From a virus (lineage: Duplodnaviria > Caudoviricetes), in the IMG/VR virus record IMGVR_UViG_3300031784_000006: 64,000 nt of DNA, one strand, 5' to 3'. Position 1 is the first letter of the stretch. The number at the start of each line of letters is the position of its first letter. Shown here one piece after another: positions 43,695 through 53,188 of this stretch. The notes beneath the pieces were generated by a model that was not told the origin of the DNA, ran no database searches, and worked only from the letters and a program-made list of their open reading frames with translations. The position numbers were made by a program, and so were the translations under genes.

Positions 43695-44282
43695 TTATGT
43701 TGTAATTCTTGCTTTTATTTCAGATATGGTCAGAGTGTTTTGGGGGATAATTTTATACTGATTACTTGCAACTTTTGGTCTTTCAATCTTTTTAATTGTT
43801 TGTAAAGAGTCAGGAACATATGCCGCCGTTTGTGGGTTAGTTCCTTTATATGTATCATTAAAAAGTTGCAACCCACCAATATTTCCCTGTGGTTGCTTCT
43901 TTGGTACAGTGTTATTTGAATTTATCAAGATACCATCAATATAAGGTTCTTGACCAGCGATACCATCAAGGAAGAATCCAGTCACAATAGTTCCGGCAAG
44001 TATTGCAGGCGTATCAAATGACCCACCCAATCCAGAACCAGATGTTACTGGCATAACAACATTAGCCATTGGTAGTTGTTCATCAGGGAGTTCTTCAGTA
44101 TTTCCCGAGTGTATGCCAAAGTACCTAACACGATATCTATAACCCCAACCTTTTTGATTTTTTGGATCAAAATGCGATGCTTCAATGTTATCCTGCCACG
44201 AAACACTGGACACAACTCTACCAAACCATCTTGGTAGGGATGATATTGAATTTAGGTCAAAATTTCCTGAATATTCATTCAT
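43695..44282 (-). CDS. gp5: gp5 N-terminal OB-fold domain protein
   Basis: WFGRVV...YRVRYFGIH....LPDEQLPMANVVMPVT...VTGFFLDG..GQEPYIDG is the gp5 OB signature. Confidence 0.75.
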   Translation of the reverse strand: MNEYSGNFDLNSISSLPRWFGRVVSSVSWQDNIEASHFDPKNQKGWGYRYRVRYFGIHSGNTEELPDEQLPMANVVMPVTSGSGLGGSFDTPAILAGTIVTGFFLDGIAGQEPYIDGILINSNNTVPKKQPQGNIGGLQLFNDTYKGTNPQTAAYVPDSLQTIKKIERPKVASNQYKIIPQNTLTISEIKARITT

Positions 44283-44924: not shown

Positions 44925-46244
44925 CTACTTTCTTTGGATAGATTCCCTTACAAGATTAATTCTTGTAAAGCAACTATTTTTAGTTACATGATGACATACA
45001 TCGACTATCATATATATGCCACTTTTTTTCTGGCTTATAGAAGTTTTCTTTTTAGAAGAAACTTCTGGAAAATCGCAAAAAATTAAATCTCCAGCTCTCA
45101 AACTCATATCGCCAGCAACCGCAATAGAAAGTTTTATAGAGAATAAGTTATTATATCTCATATAAGACTGCCGCAATATTTCATCGTTACTATAATTGAT
45201 ATAAGTTGATTTTGGCAGTTGCTCTTTAAGTGTTTTTCCTTCAACAAGAAACCCGGGGTCATCCCATTTATAAGATATTCTTGAAGTCTCTTGCTGCAGA
45301 TTAATATCTTTAGCAATTATTGGTTGTTCCTTTCCACCAATCGTGTCTGGATTAAATTGCTTTTTAGAATCAAAAGTACTTTCTCTGTAAGCACTTTCGA
45401 ATGAATTTACCGCATTCATTTTAGTATTTAATTGAGCGCCAGATAGCAACACTCTTTTTAATTCTAAGGTACTATCAAAAGAGTAATCAAGAATCTTTCC
45501 ATCATACCCAGGAGGAACAGATTTCTCAATTAAATTGTTAAAGATATATCTTTTTTTTGGTTTTTGTTTAAAAAGATTATCTATAGATTTAAATTTAAAT
45601 CCATCATAAGTTTCATAAAAAAAGAATCCTGCAAGAATTCCTTTTGCGTTTGAGATATCTGGAACAGACCTAGGGCCCAACCATGTGATTTTATAAAAGG
45701 GTTTTTCAACATTACCAATGAAACTCAATTTATTTAAAGTTGTATCAATATCTACAGTTTTTGAAGTTTTTAAAGTTTCTTTTAAAATTTTCTGTGCAGA
45801 GTCTGATATTTTACCATCATATCTTTTTTTAACTCTACACCTTTCTAGTTCATTATCAATAGATTCTTTAGAAAATAAGTCAATAACAAACATCATTTTG
45901 TCAGTACTCTCGTCAATATTTCTAACTTCTTTTATTCTAAAATGTTTATCTCCAACAAAATCTAAATTAAATTGATTTCCATCAGTTACTTTAAGATTTA
46001 CTTTTTCACCAACAGTCAAATTAAGGTCATCAGATTCTAAAGATGATGTTCCCTCGCTACCACCTCTATGTCCAGTATCGATGATAATTGCAGTTGCTCT
46101 TACAGTATTATCAAGAATACTTTCATAATATTCAAATTCTATGCAACCACTAGAAACATCTACGGGTTTATTATAATTCGAATTAATTTCAAATAACTTA
46201 ATTTGGGCTTCACCTGCTTGTGCGGCAATGTTTGCTGCTGGCAT
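44925..46244 (-). CDS. Baseplate hub protein (gp27-like)
   Basis: YYESILDNTV...FFFYETYDGFKFKSIDNLF...IAVAGDMSLRAGDLI...SGIYMIVDVCHH. Confidence 0.65.
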   Translation of the reverse strand: MPAANIAAQAGEAQIKLFEINSNYNKPVDVSSGCIEFEYYESILDNTVRATAIIIDTGHRGGSEGTSSLESDDLNLTVGEKVNLKVTDGNQFNLDFVGDKHFRIKEVRNIDESTDKMMFVIDLFSKESIDNELERCRVKKRYDGKISDSAQKILKETLKTSKTVDIDTTLNKLSFIGNVEKPFYKITWLGPRSVPDISNAKGILAGFFFYETYDGFKFKSIDNLFKQKPKKRYIFNNLIEKSVPPGYDGKILDYSFDSTLELKRVLLSGAQLNTKMNAVNSFESAYRESTFDSKKQFNPDTIGGKEQPIIAKDINLQQETSRISYKWDDPGFLVEGKTLKEQLPKSTYINYSNDEILRQSYMRYNNLFSIKLSIAVAGDMSLRAGDLIFCDFPEVSSKKKTSISQKKSGIYMIVDVCHHVTKNSCFTRINLVRESIQRK

Positions 46245-46245
46245 C

Positions 46246-49032
46246 TTATCCTCTGACTAAACTTTGCATATTACTACTATTTACACTACCCGCAACCATA
46301 AATGTAGTTGTTGAACTAGAAGTTTTTGATACTGGAATTGGAACAGTCTCTTTAATAATAATTGGTTGAATCATAACTTTTGTGCTACCGTCAGCATATG
46401 ATGGATATGATGTAAGAGACACTGCTTTATTCTTTGGATTTTGTTTTGGAATATAACCACCACCCTGATAACGAAGTTCAACATCAGTAATATCTTGGCC
46501 CCCCAAAGCATCTCTTGATGCTTTGTTTAAATCAATAACTCTAGTTGGATGTGGTCTTAAAGGATAAATTGCCTTTCCATTTCTATCAACTGCATATGGA
46601 CCCCTATCATTAATTCTAACTTGAATACTCTTACCATTTGATTTATTAGTAACAGTAACCATAGTACCAAAAGGTAACGTTGGGTGTGCTGCAGTATATT
46701 CAGTATCACCTTCACGAAATTTTTCACCATTCGCAGTTCTATTTCCATAAAAACCTGGACCATACCAAGATGCTTTACCAGTTTGTCTTACTGGTTTATC
46801 TGTACCGGGTCTATCAAACAATGAAGGAAGTTGTCCAGGTTTTGTTTTTATTGGTTGAACTTTATCAATACCCAATACACTTCTCACTTTAGCAGAACCA
46901 TTATATTGTGCTTGTGTTATAGGAGAACCCGGCGCTCCTCCCCATTGACCGCCAGGAACATCAATTGCTTGATTCGAACCGTGATATCCCGGATCACCAA
47001 TTCTATCAAGATATTCACTTCCTGTTTGAATACCTGCTGCCAATAAAGCCTTTTTTGCATTATCCTTATCCTTTGGAGTAGCAAAAGCAATATGATCGTG
47101 GTAATTAAATGGAGTTCCATGTCCATCATAATCATAGTTTGATGGATAATTTTTATCTCCAGTAATATATTCAATTGCATTGAAATATCCTGGAGAAGCA
47201 GGTTTCCATGAACCACTGTAATTTGTTTTGGGTGGAGGAGGTTCATAAGAAAACAATGAAGATGGAATATTTTTCCCCCCTCTGACCGAAACTTGTTTTT
47301 GAACTTCTCTAATAGCTTGATTGACCTTTTGTTTGATATTAGTTCCGATAATTTTTATTGGGTCTACACTAACACTTGGTTTAGATTCAAAAGTTCGTTT
47401 AACAGAACCACCAGAAGCCATCGTTGGAATTTGATTCTGTATTGAAGACACACCTTGATAACTTTTTGAAGAAATCGATCTAAATGTTTCAAATAAATTT
47501 TCAAGACCATAATTTATACTTTTAAGAGTTGCCTGAGTTATGTTTTGTCCAAGGGCAACATCAACCGAACTTCCCATCAAAGATCCAATACCGTATGGTA
47601 TATCTTTTAAGATTGAAGCTACTTCAGTAAGTGCTTTATATGGGTTTGGTTTATCTTTTTTCTTTTCCCATTCTTCTTCATATTGTTGATATGTTCCAGC
47701 ACCTCCAGCAAGATTCCATTCAGCTACTGATAATTTTCTTGATGGGTCGGGATATAACTTTTGAATTTTTTTCTTTCCACCAACATCTTTTCCCGGTTGA
47801 GTTGATTGTGGAGGAACATATGGTTTTTTAAATTTTTTAGTTGTTATAGTTCTTCCACCAGAACCCAAGACCTCACCACCTTTTGCATAACGTCGGATAA
47901 CTTTTCCACCACGACGTTGAGTTTGAACTGATGCCTCTGGACTTTTATTTGCAAAAAGAACATCATATAATTTTCCAGCAAGTTCTGCACCAGCATATCC
48001 ACCAATAAAAGTTCCAAACCCAGGCATAATTAAAGAACCAACAGCGCCGAGGAGTAAAGTTCCAACTCCTCTAAATGCTGCCTTACCTGGATTATCTCCA
48101 AGAGCCCAAGAAAGACCAAACTCAACAAGTGCTCCCACAATAGGTAACCTTGATAAAGGTCCTTTCGCAAGTCTTAATAATTGACGTGTTGCTTGCTTTC
48201 CTATAACTGCTCTAGATGCCTTTATTGTAGACGCTTGTGCAGGCCTAACTACTCTTTGTATTGGACCTCTCTGCGGAACTGGTCCTCTAGGAGTTCCTTG
48301 TGGGGTTGGTTTTGGTGGTTTATATTTTCTTGCATTATTTGCAAAGGTATTGATAGCACCTGTGAGTGCCATTCCTCCAATTAGAACATAGTTAATATAC
48401 TCATTCAACTTTCCAGATATTTTATCAAATTCACCCTGAGCCTTTTCGCCGCCAACCGTTTTTACAAGACCTTGTATCTTATCGTAAGTTTGATATCCAC
48501 GGTCTATAAAGTTTACGACACTCTCTAAAATAAATTTAAATACATTTTCAACAACACTTACTATTGGAGTAATAATTTTAACAATTCCGGTCAACTTAGG
48601 AAGTTGTTCTCGAAACTTGGTAAACAACCATCCAAGAGCAGTAAAGAATAAGAATCTCTTAATTCTATCTAAGAAACTCATTCCAGGAAGAGAAACCTTT
48701 GGGAGATTAAACTTCTTAGATTCCTTAGGAGTTTCTAATTTTGTTTCCCTCTGTTCGTTTTCTTCTTGTTCTTTTCCAATTCTCTTTGCTCTTTCTGTTT
48801 TTTGGTCTTCAGTTAATACAGATTTTAAAAGACCATCAATATCAATTAAAGATTTTTTTATAATACTTACATTCTCTTCACTACGTCTAATTGATAGAGC
48901 AGTTAATTTTTTAGTATCAATAGTCTTCTTATTAATTGCAAGAGATGATGAAACTGCCTTTGCCCCAATTTTTGCAATTGCGGATGTCTTTGCTGCAGGT
49001 AATAACTTCTGAACGTTAATAGCCATCGTCAA
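46246..49032 (-). CDS. Tape-measure-like protein with M15-like peptidase and RlpA-like domains
   Basis: 928 aa; coiled coil, hydrophobic Gly-rich helices, xxGG linkers; GKASWYGPGF...TAAHPTLPFGT..VTN...VRINDRGPY...VIDL RlpA motif. Confidence 0.7.
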   Translation of the reverse strand: MTMAINVQKLLPAAKTSAIAKIGAKAVSSSLAINKKTIDTKKLTALSIRRSEENVSIIKKSLIDIDGLLKSVLTEDQKTERAKRIGKEQEENEQRETKLETPKESKKFNLPKVSLPGMSFLDRIKRFLFFTALGWLFTKFREQLPKLTGIVKIITPIVSVVENVFKFILESVVNFIDRGYQTYDKIQGLVKTVGGEKAQGEFDKISGKLNEYINYVLIGGMALTGAINTFANNARKYKPPKPTPQGTPRGPVPQRGPIQRVVRPAQASTIKASRAVIGKQATRQLLRLAKGPLSRLPIVGALVEFGLSWALGDNPGKAAFRGVGTLLLGAVGSLIMPGFGTFIGGYAGAELAGKLYDVLFANKSPEASVQTQRRGGKVIRRYAKGGEVLGSGGRTITTKKFKKPYVPPQSTQPGKDVGGKKKIQKLYPDPSRKLSVAEWNLAGGAGTYQQYEEEWEKKKDKPNPYKALTEVASILKDIPYGIGSLMGSSVDVALGQNITQATLKSINYGLENLFETFRSISSKSYQGVSSIQNQIPTMASGGSVKRTFESKPSVSVDPIKIIGTNIKQKVNQAIREVQKQVSVRGGKNIPSSLFSYEPPPPKTNYSGSWKPASPGYFNAIEYITGDKNYPSNYDYDGHGTPFNYHDHIAFATPKDKDNAKKALLAAGIQTGSEYLDRIGDPGYHGSNQAIDVPGGQWGGAPGSPITQAQYNGSAKVRSVLGIDKVQPIKTKPGQLPSLFDRPGTDKPVRQTGKASWYGPGFYGNRTANGEKFREGDTEYTAAHPTLPFGTMVTVTNKSNGKSIQVRINDRGPYAVDRNGKAIYPLRPHPTRVIDLNKASRDALGGQDITDVELRYQGGGYIPKQNPKNKAVSLTSYPSYADGSTKVMIQPIIIKETVPIPVSKTSSSTTTFMVAGSVNSSNMQSLVRG

Positions 49033-51341
49033 GCAATCCCGTAAATACTAGCATTAGTAGACCTATCAAAACTTCCACTAGAAGAAGTTGCTGAGAATGT
49101 TGGAACTTTAGAACCTGCAGCAGCACTACCACCACCTTTCATTCCAGACGATTGTACTATTGGTGGTAGAGTTACAACATTTTGAGAACCATCTCTTGTC
49201 AATGGTTTTATTTGAGGAATATTTTTGGTTCGATATCCAAGTTTAGCTGCGTTCGAATCACTGTCAGTCATTGCAACTAATTTATCAATGAGAGAAGTTC
49301 CAAGACGATTTACTGTATTAACTGGAAGAACATACTCCCCAGGTTGAGCAAAAACAACTTGCCTATCTGCTGTTGCTCCACGAATATCCATTCCAGTATT
49401 CTCTTTAATCAGTCCACCACCCATACGCTGCACAGGTCTAGGACCCTTATAACCAGGAGCATTATAATATGCATTCGGTCCTGTCAATTGACTATATGAA
49501 GAAGTCCCTTCTGGGAATAGCATATCACTGATGACAGGAGCATTTAAAGCACCAACAAACCTACCACCAAGTCTGGCAGTTCCAGTGGCAAATGAACGAG
49601 CCATGGATGGTGTTTGTTGGGTTAATAATGGCATCAAAGATCTTGCTTTAGCACCAGTATATTTGCCACTCATGATACCTTCAGCAATTCTTAATCCCCT
49701 ATTTGCTTGACGCGCAGAAACAACTGTGGCACCTCTTAATGTTCTTGCCCCCTCAGGAACTAACATATTTAATCTGGGTCCTTGGCCAGGTAAAAGACCT
49801 TTAAATTTGCCGGCACCTCTATAAGTATCAGCAACCCAACCCTTTACACTACCATAAACTCCTTTACCAAGCATTCCCATTTGTTCTCTAAAACCGGTAG
49901 CACGAATAGATTCTGGTGCTCCGAATGATGTCCCATGCATAATTCTTTTAAGAGGAGCACCACGGAGACCTTTAGTTGTAGATTTTCTTCCAGATACTGG
50001 TGCTACTGCGTTAATAATTCTTTCGATTGGAGTTGCCAATCTTGTAACAACTCCACCAACCATTCCTCCAGTATTAAATAATCTACCAAATTTAGGTTGA
50101 TTAGCCCCAGAACCACCATAATACTTGTTTAAAGTTAAAAATGTATCTGCACCAACTGCATCTACAGTTCTCTTATTAATAACAACTTCGCCAGGTTGTG
50201 CGGCAATTAATTGCGTATCAGGACCAAATCCAGATATTCGTTGTCCTGTAGTATTGTCTATACCAGAATATCCATCAAGCACAGAACCACCACGAGCAGC
50301 ACCTTGAAGAAGACCATATGGTGTTGTTGCTCCCATATTACCAACACTAGGAACCTTATCGGTCATAGTATCAGTTCCTTGAGTGCCTAGACCCTTTCCA
50401 GTCTGTGCTCTTGCTTTATTCTCTGCTTGAACTCCTGCTGCCTTTCTTTGACCAGTGACTTCATTTGCAGCTGCTGCTAATCCAACCGCTGCGGCAGGAA
50501 CGGCAACCCAAGGATTAAGTAAAACTTTACTGAGACCTTTTATTGCACCAGCAATCTTAGGTATTGCACCAACTAGTTTGCCAGTTAAACCACCAACAAT
50601 TCCAAGTATTCCTCTTACAAATTTACCAAAGGGCGTGAAAAATAAAACAAAAGCACCAAGTAAAGATGGCCACCAATCCTTTAAAAATCTTTTTAGTGTC
50701 TTAATTTTATTTTGATTCTTTGGATCCTTAAACCAATTTACAAGTTGATTAAATGCCCTACCTAACAAAGTAAAGAAAATAAATCGGAATACTCTATCAA
50801 TGATACCCTGAAATGGAGAAATAAATTTCTTTGCGGCATCAGATACCGCTGCCATCCCTTTCTTAACAGTTTCTAACCCTTCCTCTCTTTTGGACCTCTT
50901 CTTCGCTTCATTATCTTTTCTTTCTTGGTCTGCAGTATCTTCTTTAAAATCTAAAAATGAAATTAATACTTTCTTAATAGAATCAAGAGGACCTTGAAGT
51001 GTTGCTAAATTTGCAGGTTGAATTTGTGAGGATTGAATACCACCTGCGGGTGCAATTAAAGGGGTTGATATTGGTTGTACTGATGGTTTTAAAAACTTAG
51101 TTGTTGCTATCTTATTTGCATTTATCTTTTGAGTCTTTGGTTTAAATCTACCCTTCTTTCCTCTTATTCTTTTTCTTTCATTTGCAAGCAGAGCAAGTTC
51201 TTCTGGTGGCAATTTTCTTGCACCAGAGACCATTGCTTCTCTAATAAGATTGAGATAAGTATCATAATCCAAGTCAAACGTATAATCAAGACCCAGTAGC
51301 CTTAAAATTCTTTCATCGATTTTTTCGGATACTGAGTTCAT
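49029..51341 (-). CDS. Tape-measure-like protein with an internal ADP-ribosyltransferase-like motif
   Basis: 770 aa; N-half architecture similar to the neighbour; two AQPGE(V/Y)V domains; HGTS...SI...GF...GMLGKGVY...A..Y. Confidence 0.6.
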   Translation of the reverse strand: MNSVSEKIDERILRLLGLDYTFDLDYDTYLNLIREAMVSGARKLPPEELALLANERKRIRGKKGRFKPKTQKINANKIATTKFLKPSVQPISTPLIAPAGGIQSSQIQPANLATLQGPLDSIKKVLISFLDFKEDTADQERKDNEAKKRSKREEGLETVKKGMAAVSDAAKKFISPFQGIIDRVFRFIFFTLLGRAFNQLVNWFKDPKNQNKIKTLKRFLKDWWPSLLGAFVLFFTPFGKFVRGILGIVGGLTGKLVGAIPKIAGAIKGLSKVLLNPWVAVPAAAVGLAAAANEVTGQRKAAGVQAENKARAQTGKGLGTQGTDTMTDKVPSVGNMGATTPYGLLQGAARGGSVLDGYSGIDNTTGQRISGFGPDTQLIAAQPGEVVINKRTVDAVGADTFLTLNKYYGGSGANQPKFGRLFNTGGMVGGVVTRLATPIERIINAVAPVSGRKSTTKGLRGAPLKRIMHGTSFGAPESIRATGFREQMGMLGKGVYGSVKGWVADTYRGAGKFKGLLPGQGPRLNMLVPEGARTLRGATVVSARQANRGLRIAEGIMSGKYTGAKARSLMPLLTQQTPSMARSFATGTARLGGRFVGALNAPVISDMLFPEGTSSYSQLTGPNAYYNAPGYKGPRPVQRMGGGLIKENTGMDIRGATADRQVVFAQPGEYVLPVNTVNRLGTSLIDKLVAMTDSDSNAAKLGYRTKNIPQIKPLTRDGSQNVVTLPPIVQSSGMKGGGSAAAGSKVPTFSATSSSGSFDRSTNASIYGIA

Positions 51342-51347
51342 TTATCG

Positions 51348-51518
51348 CTATCGTTGTCTTTGTTTAAATTCTTCTTCTTCGAGATGATTCTTTAATAGTC
51401 CAACATAAACGTCCCTTTCCCAGGGTATCATATTTTCAATCTCCGTTAATGAATATTTATGGAACTGGACAAGAGAAAAATTTAATTTAAAATAATTCTC
51501 CAAGTCCATATGGGACAT
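51348..51518 (-). CDS. gp51: Baseplate hub assembly catalyst gp51 (not in ORF track)
   Basis: Manual translation MSHMDLENYFKLNFSLVQFHKYSLTEIENMIPWERDVYVGLLKNHLEEEEFKQRQR. Confidence 0.85.
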   Translation of the reverse strand: MSHMDLENYFKLNFSLVQFHKYSLTEIENMIPWERDVYVGLLKNHLEEEEFKQRQR

Positions 51519-51520
51519 TC

Positions 51521-52240
51521 CTATGAGAAAAAACTTGATAACCCTTCAAGAACAACATCATTTTCGACTTGAGTGTTTGGATTTGTAACTTTAATCTTAT
51601 GAGAAAGTTTTGGCATTGTCTCAAAGAACTGTTCAATCTCTTTAAATTGAACTGAGTTCATTTGATCCAAAAACTCCAACAGTTCTTTCTTAGTAACGTC
51701 AGCAGCTACCCATACATCATCTTCTGTATAAATTTTATCAATACAAGAAGATATTAGTTCGAAAGACTGGTCCATAGTATTATCAGAGGACAAGTCAAAA
51801 TTACTCTTAATAAATTGGTCCAATGATGGATACTTCATTTCCATCATAATAGAATCATCAAGTTTTATTTTATTATTATGTTCGGGAACTCTTAAAACTT
51901 GAATATCATCTACAGAAATTTTTACAGGAACTACAGTCTCTTCATCATCAGGACAAATAACATTTACTTCAATCTCTTCCCCGACAGATTTACCTCGGAT
52001 GTTGAGAAAGAGATATTCAATGTCAAAGGTTGGAAGAGACTCTACTTTGACATTTTTTGTTTCAATACAATTCTTAATAACAGTTTTAATTGCCGTAGTA
52101 ATTTGCTTGGTATCTTCAGACTCTAAAGCAAGAACTAAAAGTTTTTCTTCTCTTACAAGAAAAGGTCTATACTTAATTTTTTGTCCTGTGGATGGCAACT
52201 CAAGTTCATAAGTTGGCGTAGAAATCTTAGGTAAAGGCAT
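51521..52240 (-). CDS. gp26: Baseplate hub subunit gp26
   Basis: MPLPKISTPTYELELPSTGQKIKYRPFLVREEKLL...FDIEYLFLNIRGKSVGE. Confidence 0.9.
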   Translation of the reverse strand: MPLPKISTPTYELELPSTGQKIKYRPFLVREEKLLVLALESEDTKQITTAIKTVIKNCIETKNVKVESLPTFDIEYLFLNIRGKSVGEEIEVNVICPDDEETVVPVKISVDDIQVLRVPEHNNKIKLDDSIMMEMKYPSLDQFIKSNFDLSSDNTMDQSFELISSCIDKIYTEDDVWVAADVTKKELLEFLDQMNSVQFKEIEQFFETMPKLSHKIKVTNPNTQVENDVVLEGLSSFFS

Positions 52241-52267: not shown

Positions 52268-52275
52268 TATTTATT
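52268..52275 (-). promoter_or_regulatory. T4-type late promoter (AATAAATA)
   Basis: Overlaps the tandem stop of the upstream gene, 27 nt before gp26. Confidence 0.55.
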
Positions 52276-53188
52276 AGGCTACTGTTGGGTTCAAGTTTCC
52301 TGTTAAACCAGGAATTCCGGGTCCTAAAGGAAAAGAATTTCCATCCACATCTCCAAAAACAGGGGAATTTTGATTTATTGACCTAACATCTGATGGAGAA
52401 GGAACACCAGTTGCGGTAGATTGTTTTGGTTCAGATTCTGGAGTATATGCTCTTGACGCAAGAGTATATCTATTAAAAGTAAAGGACACAGTACATTTCA
52501 ATAACTGAGCGGAATCATAAGAAACTGGCATTGAGGCAACGCTTACTGGATAAGCCTTAACGAAGGTATAATTTAAATAATTTCCATTGAAATCCCTTTC
52601 AAACTTATTAATAAAAATTTCAGTTCTATATCCATTATCTCCATCAGGATATCCAACTCTATAATTATAATTTCCATCTGGTGCAGTAGAAGTTTCTCCC
52701 ATTGCATATCTCATCCACCCCTCAAAAAAATTAATCACATTATATCCACTATTCAATACTCCACCATCAACATAAAAAGTAAAATCTACAGTATTATCAT
52801 ATTGCCTACGATATCCTAGTCTTTCAGTGACTCCAGTATAATCATCATTAATTTCATTTGTAATGATAGATGACCCGGGAAGAGATGCTTCGGTACAAGA
52901 TATTGAAATAAAATCATCATTATAATTTGTCACCGCCCTAACAGATGCTGGTGGATTAAACCAACACTGAAAGTGAGATGTTAATGCAGGTCTCAGTAAA
53001 AAAGATTTTATTTCAAAAGCACCTTTATAATTTCTTGGTGGTGGAGCTCCACCAGGATTTGATGAAGTAGCACTACCAGTTCCAGGACTTTTTCCTGTAC
53101 CAGAAGTTTGAATGCTGGGAGTTGGAACTGCAGGAACTCCAGGAGCTGGTTGGGGATTAAATGGAATTACCTCTAATGGAGTTGCCAT
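52274..53188 (-). CDS. Tail-tube-fold protein (gp54/gp19-like)
   Basis: CTEASLPG...YDNTVDFTFYVD...FFEGW...AYPVSVASMPVSYD...CTVSFTF; Pro-rich termini. Confidence 0.65.
   Translation of the reverse strand: MATPLEVIPFNPQPAPGVPAVPTPSIQTSGTGKSPGTGSATSSNPGGAPPPRNYKGAFEIKSFLLRPALTSHFQCWFNPPASVRAVTNYNDDFISISCTEASLPGSSIITNEINDDYTGVTERLGYRRQYDNTVDFTFYVDGGVLNSGYNVINFFEGWMRYAMGETSTAPDGNYNYRVGYPDGDNGYRTEIFINKFERDFNGNYLNYTFVKAYPVSVASMPVSYDSAQLLKCTVSFTFNRYTLASRAYTPESEPKQSTATGVPSPSDVRSINQNSPVFGDVDGNSFPLGPGIPGLTGNLNPTVA

Follow-up and report, generated by a model that had tools for sequence, protein, structure and literature searches.

A compact, exchangeable module with a predicted ADP-ribosyltransferase fold in a tape-measure-like hub protein of a cyanophage

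The open reading frame and its layout

The stretch of DNA analyzed here (the window) comprises 64,000 nucleotides of IMG/VR virus record IMGVR_UViG_3300031784_000006 (Duplodnaviria; Caudoviricetes), has a G+C content of 36%, and comes from an uncultured T4-like cyanomyovirus whose nearest cultured relatives are the Synechococcus phages SynMITS9220M01, S-SM2, and Bellamy (Kyanoviridae). On its minus strand, an open reading frame (ORF) of 770 amino acids, P0001 (49029..51341), encodes a tape-measure-like protein that carries a module which, there is little doubt, shares both fold and ancestry with the poly(ADP-ribose) polymerases (PARPs) and Gig2 proteins of the ADP-ribosyltransferase (ART) superfamily. 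The original prediction, made from the DNA letters and their translations, had placed a Gig2/PARP-like ART motif at 49650-49960, inside a putative ejected tail protein and between two copies of an AQPGE(V/Y)V domain. This interval corresponds to approximately residues 461-564 of P0001, and because its plus-strand translation is full of stops the minus strand is the coding strand. The motif is real, running as IMHGTSFG...VADTY over residues 467-507 (49821-49943) with His469, Tyr496, and Tyr507 numbered as predicted, and it does lie between two AQPGE(V/Y)V copies, which are homologous to each other (residues 361-397 and 645-681; 43% identity, E 3e-7).

The first of these flanking repeats (50151..50261, minus strand) has the sequence AQPGEVV at residues 381-387, and the second (49299..49409, minus strand) has AQPGEYV at residues 665-671. 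No Pfam family covers the repeat, which is 52-63% identical to proteins of S-PM2, S-B43, RN05-S, and other cyanophages, some of them labelled endolysin; the first copy is 62% identical to proteins of S-PM2 and other cyanophages. Nearer the N-terminus, residues 111-300 (50442..51011, minus strand) form a charged segment and a hydrophobic, glycine-rich region paralogous to the N-terminus of a neighboring 928-amino acid protein (residues 111-267 against residues 54-209 of the neighbor; BLASTP, E 2e-7). The strongly hydrophobic stretches are at residues 230-249 and 273-292, glycine-rich linkers are also present, and a coiled coil in the charged segment is suggested from composition alone. Among PHROG groups the whole protein matches phrog_35029 (E 5.6e-53) and, weakly, the tape-measure group phrog_37649 (E 0.0022 over 85 residues). 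It has 82 homologues; one homologue matched the tape-measure family PF06791 (E 0.021).

Between the module and the second repeat, and separate from both, is a linker motif at residues 599-636 (NAPVI..FPEGT..YYNAPGYKGP; 49434..49547, minus strand). Its conservation is very strong (NAPVI.DMLFPEGT..Y.QLTGPNAYYNAPGYKGP), and about 35 hub-protein relatives with no ART-like part have the motif by itself. Perhaps this linker serves as a junction, or for docking, at the slot into which the module fits.

Homology of the module to PARP and Gig2

With residues 430-660 as the query, a phmmer search of 1.84 billion representative proteins matched 61 proteins, and all but three of them were relatives of the phage hub protein. 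The three non-phage matches, P0107, P0123, and P0125 (E 6.9e-10, 7.1e-5, and 2.2e-4), are tandem-repeat proteins that align only to query residues 467-498; they match the PARP family PF00644 (E 4.7e-36, 7.4e-22, and 4.5e-19, respectively) and also the ART-PolyVal and Exotoxin-A families. P0107 belongs to a fish, Astyanax mexicanus, and shares its 90% cluster with a protein named "GCRV-induced gene 2e." One of the Gig2 repeats can be aligned with PARP10 over YHGT...GKGVYF...RY. The lead of Gig2 over other PARPs in this search comes partly from the summing of three to four repeats per protein. When a profile of 66 phage modules was aligned by hhalign to ten Gig2 repeats, the probability was 97.4% (E 8.9e-12) over 44 columns, residues 465-508, with HGT, GF, GMLGxGVY, and AxxY all in register; with the modules that have the histidine (His-type) alone, the probability was 98.0%. 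The Gig2/PARP reading of the motif, for which the original prediction had proposed profile and structure searches as a check, is therefore correct given the phmmer link and these profile probabilities. The link from P0001 to PF00644 is transitive only, by way of the Gig2-like proteins. The Tpt1/KptA family (PF01885) and ART-PolyVal (PF18760) had no match to the phage proteins, and feature searches of the ESM Atlas returned only unnamed viral clusters (scores 0.77-0.85).

Predicted structure

An AlphaFold2 model of residues 456-598 (49548..49976, minus strand), made from the phage-only alignment of 66 sequences with no templates and no PARP sequences, has a pLDDT of 80.1 and a pTM of 0.73, with a confident core at about residues 464-575 (49617-49952). 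A single-sequence model of residues 360-700 was unusable (pLDDT 36). The modelled β-strands are at residues 464-470, bearing His469, at 487-489, at 492-498, bearing Tyr496, and, after a poorly defined loop at about residues 508-522, at 523-529 and 538-541; helices occupy residues 475-482 and 501-507, the latter ending at Tyr507, and three more follow at residues 543-595, the last of low confidence. This is the split β-sheet of the ARTs with its β-α-β-α half for binding nicotinamide adenine dinucleotide (NAD): His-Gly-Thr is on the first strand of that half, GxGxY-x-Ser is on its second, AxxY ends the helix, and the whole is about the size of the NAD lobe of Tpt1.

When the model was compared by VIA-align with 48,161 representative chains, ranks 1-28 were all ART-superfamily folds, including KptA/Tpt1 (Z 6.8), PARP13 (6.3), tankyrase-2 (5.8), PARP10 (5.7), PARP1 (5.6), and diphtheria toxin (5.3); the TASOR pseudo-PARP was also among the matches. 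In the re-scored Foldseek list from the PDB, Tpt1 of Pyrococcus horikoshii had Z 7.2 (81 residues aligned, root-mean-square deviation (rmsd) 2.8), PARP16 had Z 6.5, and tankyrase-2 had Z 6.4 (99 aligned, 22-24% identity). PARP, Gig2, and exotoxin-A domains head the Foldseek lists from the PDB, AFDB clusters, and BFVD as well as the list from the ESM Atlas, so that the structure search proposed in the original prediction, like the profile search, came out in favor of an ART fold. ART folds lead the lists from all five structure libraries (Z 5-7.2, TM 0.49-0.57), and although each score is moderate, the agreement of the five, taken with the link by sequence, renders the fold assignment secure.

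Residues of the active site

Conservation was assessed in 15 non-redundant His-type modules with less than 75% mutual identity, the distant ones being about 30-50% identical to P0001. Conserved in at least 85% of them are H469, G470, T471, I479, G483, F484, G489, M490, L491, G492, G494, Y496, S498, A504, and Y507 in the NAD-binding half, and P529, T534, G537, A538, T539, V540, G549, A553, G559, Y561, and A566 after it. The motifs HGT, GxGxY-x-Ser, and AxxY line the NAD pocket in PARPs. Because the conserved set includes these motifs (in P0001, HGT with His469, GKGVYGS with Tyr496, and ADTY with Tyr507, aligned by hhalign to Gig2/PARP; residues 467-507, 49821..49943, minus strand), the sequences argue for a pocket that would be preserved, and it is somewhat easier to suppose that this putative pocket works than that it does not. 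His469-Gly-Thr aligns with the HGT of the Gig2/PARP repeats, on the first strand. Tyr496, in GxGxY, and Tyr507, 11 residues further on, align with Gig2 tyrosines and are unchanged in 32 of 32 homologues; one distant member has phenylalanine at position 496. The signature that had been proposed for the NAD-binding residues of the H-Y-E clade thus holds for both tyrosines and for the histidine in their HG[ST], GxGxY, and AxxY settings, but His469 is conserved in the His-type modules only, with glycine, serine, or arginine in its place in a sister group described below.

The third catalytic position is different. The strand that bears the glutamate in H-Y-E ARTs corresponds to RTLRGATVV at residues 533-541 (49719..49745, minus strand), an invariant RT[LF]RGATV motif in the conservation table, and no aspartate, glutamate, or glutamine is conserved at residues 531-548 of the His-type modules. 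In a forced global hhalign alignment, of low confidence, the "LEED" of Gig2 falls on the phage "LRGA," which puts the glutamate position at about Gly537. The observation that no catalytic glutamate is evident and that GATVVS (residues 537-542) stands at the expected strand was accordingly borne out by the conservation table and the alignment. From the conserved histidine and tyrosine and the non-acidic residue at about Gly537, the configuration is H-Y-(Gly/Ala). Between the second tyrosine and the glutamate strand, moreover, PARP/Gig2 have about 40 residues more than the module. Arg533 and Arg536 are conserved beside the glutamate position, and the net charge of the module is +12 to +21 in both clades; since the whole carrier protein is basic, this charge does not set the module apart. 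Poly-ADP-ribosylation by the module is unlikely. Glutamate-independent transfer of single ADP-ribose units, of the PARP10 type or Tpt1-like, is possible to judge from these residues, as are binding of NAD or ADP-ribose alone and loss of function; that the module would catalyze ADP-ribosyl transfer at all is somewhat doubtful.

An exchangeable cassette

There are two kinds of module: the His-type, with IMHGT, to which that of the window belongs, and a sister clade that has glycine, serine, or arginine for the histidine, has a shorter first helix, and does not have RTLRGATV. Homology between the two kinds is confident only from GMLGxGxY onward (98.2%). The IMG/VR loci L012 and L015 represent a phage almost identical to that of the window (gp26 98% identical, neighboring proteins 66-93%), and their orthologue of P0001 is approximately 90-100% identical over residues 1-430 and 598-770, but only about 25% identical over residues 431-597 (49551..50051, minus strand), where the slot is occupied by a His-less sister module. 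At the DNA level, identity to the near-identical phage is 83-100% in the flanks and 30-48% between about 50050 and 49553. The drop in protein and DNA identity over residues ~431-597 therefore indicates that the module has been exchanged as a unit between conserved flanks. The P0001 orthologues of the cultured phages Bellamy and SynMITS9220M01 do not have the module.

A stand-alone version was also found: P0092, of 160 amino acids, on a 2.6-kb contig of GCA_037933065.1, has VHRGTT in place of IMHGT and keeps RTFRGATVL. This protein shows that the module can exist apart from the hub protein.

The baseplate-hub block

P0001 lies within a block of baseplate-hub genes, all on the minus strand, in the order gp54-like, gp26, gp51, P0001, the 928-amino acid protein, a phrog_350 tail protein, and gp5; this order is kept in six IMG/VR loci and in the cultured relatives. 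The gp54-like tube protein (52274-53188) was recognized by profile matches and the gp26 baseplate hub subunit (51521..52240) by PF12322 (E 9.3e-76) and phrog_150 (E 7e-80). Between gp26 and P0001 is a 56-amino acid, gp51-like hub assembly gene (51348..51518), with a megablast match over the "putative baseplate hub assembly catalyst" of SynMITS9220M01 and a counterpart in Bellamy also labelled gp51-like "baseplate hub assembly catalyst." On the other side of P0001, the 928-amino acid paralogous tape-measure-like protein (46246..49032) has a DPBB (RlpA-like) lytic domain (PF03330, E 1.9e-15) and PHROG matches of endolysin type. It is followed by a 439-amino acid tail protein in the gp27-like position (44925..46244; phrog_350 "tail protein," E 7.7e-78) and a gp5 OB-domain protein (43695..44282), whose PF06714 match (E 3.3e-4) is below the Pfam cut-off and whose synteny partner in cultured relatives is labelled "baseplate hub and tail lysozyme." P0001 is thus flanked by gp26 and gp51 on one side and by the gp27-like protein and gp5 on the other.

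Homologues of P0001 additionally bear Peptidase_M23 or the SleB-like Hydrolase_2. In P0089 (981 amino acids), P0008, P0009, P0013, P0014, P0015, P0045, P0049, and P0085, one of these two hydrolases is on the same polypeptide as the ART-like module; the hub protein therefore stacks several cargo domains and does not choose one among them. Synteny and architecture make it probable that the carrier is an ejected protein of the tail lumen or hub. The tail-protein context given in the original prediction agrees with this, in that the gene is in the baseplate-hub module and the protein looks to be of tape-measure or ejected type by its synteny, its paralogy, its hydrolase-bearing homologues, and the weak phrog_37649 match.

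A second weak match was seen between P0001 and its 928-amino acid neighbor (46246-49032, minus strand): residues 511-558, the C-terminal half of the ART-like module with its first helix, align with residues 246-294 of the neighbor (35% identity over 49 residues, E 0.001 in a single comparison). The neighbor does not have the half with HGT and GxGxY, and the match may reflect a scaffold element common to both proteins or be due to chance.

Interpretation and alternatives

The reading favored here is that residues ~456-598 are a compact ART-fold domain, homologous to the NAD-binding half of PARP and Gig2, that is carried as a cassette in a tape-measure-like hub protein and is perhaps an NAD-binding effector; the gene context, the exchange of cassettes, the conserved residues, and the fold with its homology are established by the analysis, virion location, delivery, NAD binding, and catalysis are inferred, and a probability of about 0.5 seems appropriate for the whole. 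According to this reading, the carrier would be incorporated in the tail lumen or hub, to be expelled at infection along with the paralogue that bears the cell-wall hydrolase domain. The module would then bind NAD+ in the preserved pocket and could transfer a single ADP-ribose without the canonical glutamate, in the way known for the H-Y-hydrophobic mono-ARTs and for Tpt1; alternatively, it might be the NAD- or ADP-ribose-binding part of an ejected protein. A bolder form of the same idea would have an active glutamate-independent ART in the tail lumen as the first enzyme to enter with the end of the DNA, where it would strike a target in host defense or takeover or cap a nucleic-acid phosphate in the manner of Tpt1, with the His-type and His-less modules as effectors in an arms race and a recent common origin with the antiviral Gig2 ARTs of animals; this is unlikely.

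Several observations weigh against the favored reading. The sequence similarity to PARP/Gig2 ends at residue 508, where confident hhalign alignment stops, and the forced alignment of the C-terminal half of Gig2 beyond it has near-zero confidence. No Pfam ART family was found on P0001 (PF00644 gave none at E up to 1) or on residues 440-600, and none, PF00644 included, was found on 32 family members at E up to 10; sequence searches of the PDB with the protein and with the profile returned nothing relevant. The structural scores are middling (Z no higher than 7.2, Foldseek E no lower than 5e-3), in a range that a common arrangement of elements can also give. No acidic residue is conserved at residues 520-548 of the 15 His-type modules, and E530 is replaced by glutamine in 29 of 32 homologues. 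The same slot of a near-identical phage holds a His-less variant, an observation equally compatible with a non-catalytic role and with alternative effectors. The hydrolase domains that accompany the module in relatives have peptidoglycan as their target and so act in the periplasm, a compartment devoid of NAD+. Finally, a tblastn search of 50,697 phage records, among them the cultured phages, gave no match to the module.

The foremost rival reading is a pseudo-ART, a domain derived from PARP/Gig2 that has lost the use of NAD and serves as a compact, basic structural or binding module, for example for the DNA end, the tube lumen, a membrane, or the cell wall. Such a loss is a serious contender, though the odds are against it. 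It would account for the missing catalytic glutamate and for the roughly 40 residues that are fewer than in PARP between Tyr507 and the glutamate strand, and it is consistent with the interchangeable His-less cassette, with the strong positive charge in both clades, with companion domains that are periplasmic wall hydrolases, and with the presence of PARP13 and the TASOR pseudo-PARP among the structural matches. However, His-Gly-Thr, GxGxY-x-Ser, and AxxY are retained across His-type modules that are otherwise only about 30-50% identical, and it is textbook knowledge that the H-Y-hydrophobic PARPs and Tpt1 are active without a catalytic glutamate. The module could instead be an ART directed at nucleic acids or phosphates that uses Tpt1-like chemistry to ADP-ribosylate a terminal DNA or RNA phosphate as the genome enters, with either the phage DNA end or a host nucleic acid as target. 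The NAD lobes of Tpt1 are the best structural matches (Z 6.8-7.2; 81 of about 88 residues aligned at rmsd 2.8), the charge of +12 to +21 and the conserved Arg533 and Arg536 by the glutamate position would suit such a substrate, and a tape-measure-like carrier would presumably adjoin the DNA end. This specific activity is nevertheless quite improbable: the N-terminal RNA lobe of Tpt1 is absent, PF01885 is unmatched, the motifs are of the PARP/Gig2 (H-Y) type and not H-H-h, and the entire carrier is basic. The last possibility, that HGT...GxGxY...Y is a coincidence in an unrelated fold, could draw on the lack of direct Pfam and PDB sequence matches and on single structural scores that are moderate, but it is close to refuted by the database-wide phmmer matches to PARP-domain proteins (E down to 6.9e-10), by the hhalign probability of 97-98%, and by the ART folds at the top of five independent structure libraries.

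Relation to known ARTs and ejected proteins

Compared with known systems, the fold and the idea of delivery by the virion are familiar; the novelty lies in the kind of carrier, in the lack of the acidic residue, in a compact architecture the size of Tpt1, and in the behavior as a cassette. The fish Gig2 proteins (PF00644) are the sole non-phage sequence matches, with approximately 41% profile identity over 44 columns and the same spacing of HGT, a first helix ending in GF, GMLGxGVY, and AxxY, and AFDB models of Gig2 figure in the structural matches of the module as well. The conserved, glutamate-bearing C-terminal half of Gig2 (WHD..GYDTAW.PP.CGMV.SG.EE.CVWDP) has no counterpart in the phage module, which is shorter. 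PARP10, PARP12, PARP14-16, and tankyrase match in fold (Z 5.7-6.5, 85-99 residues aligned, 18-24% identity) and share the histidine and the two tyrosines; in its non-acidic glutamate position the module resembles the H-Y-hydrophobic mono-ARTs PARP10, PARP12, and PARP14-16 and differs from tankyrase. Unlike the PARPs, it is not matched by PF00644, does not have the approximately 40 residues after the second tyrosine, and has its C-terminal strands replaced or followed by three helices. In structure the module comes closest to the NAD lobe of Tpt1/KptA, which is also similar in size (Z 7.2, 81 aligned, rmsd 2.8), and Tpt1 chemistry is independent of glutamate; however, the two share 14% identity, there is no PF01885 match, and the module lacks the N-terminal RNA lobe with its Arg-His-Arg-Arg tetrad and is H-Y where Tpt1 is H-H.

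Phage ARTs known to enter with the DNA are packaged in the head, as with T4 Alt, the MuF fusions, and the polyvalent proteins. T4 Alt belongs to the R-S-E clade and is unrelated to the module. Among the virion-delivered phage ARTs of the H-Y-[EDQ] superclade, which includes PARP and Gig2 as well as ART-PolyVal and the present module, some are fused to MuF and others are part of polyvalent proteins (H-Y-D), often with lysozyme or SpoIID-like domains, and the polyvalent-protein ARTs are related to PARP, Gig2, and diphtheria-type toxins (PMC5512222, PMC9503650). ART-PolyVal (PF18760) and Tox-ART-HYD2 share with P0001 the idea of an ART in a large virion protein, beside wall-degrading domains, that is delivered at infection (PMC5512222, PMC9503650). 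The polyvalent and MuF ARTs, in which the third residue is still acidic, are associated with the head or portal (MuF fusions, N4 vRNAP), whereas the present module is in a tape-measure-like hub protein of the tail and does not have the acidic residue; there is no PF18760 match and no conserved aspartate on the last strands. Tape-measure and ejection proteins with embedded lysozyme, M23, or lytic transglycosylase domains share with P0001 a hydrophobic and glycine-rich N-terminal region and C-terminal globular cargo, and the likeness extends to relatives of P0001 that bear M23 or Hydrolase_2 and to the paralogous neighbor with DPBB. In the papers searched and read, no tail hub or tape-measure-like protein is described as having a cargo with an ART fold.

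If the favored reading is true, a tape-measure-like hub protein with an ART-fold cargo would represent a second route of delivery, and NAD chemistry would come into play as soon as phage and cell first meet. Cassette exchange this sharp between near-identical phages points to a slot of rapid functional turnover, a property typical of modules that interact with the host. Through its link in sequence to fish Gig2, the module, at about 140 amino acids, would be a small and tractable model for a poorly understood branch of PARP-like domains, and if it is inactive it would still exemplify clearly how the fold of an enzyme can be taken over for a structural role in a tail protein.

The model also has a weak match to an ejection protein of another cyanophage. 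Residues 1278-1600 of chain B of PDB entry 9k3a, a pre-ejectosome protein of the cyanopodophage A4, align with it over 80 residues (Z 3.7, 20% identity). The paper on A4 does not mention an ART-like domain, and the match could be noise or a second ART-like fold in an ejected cyanophage protein.

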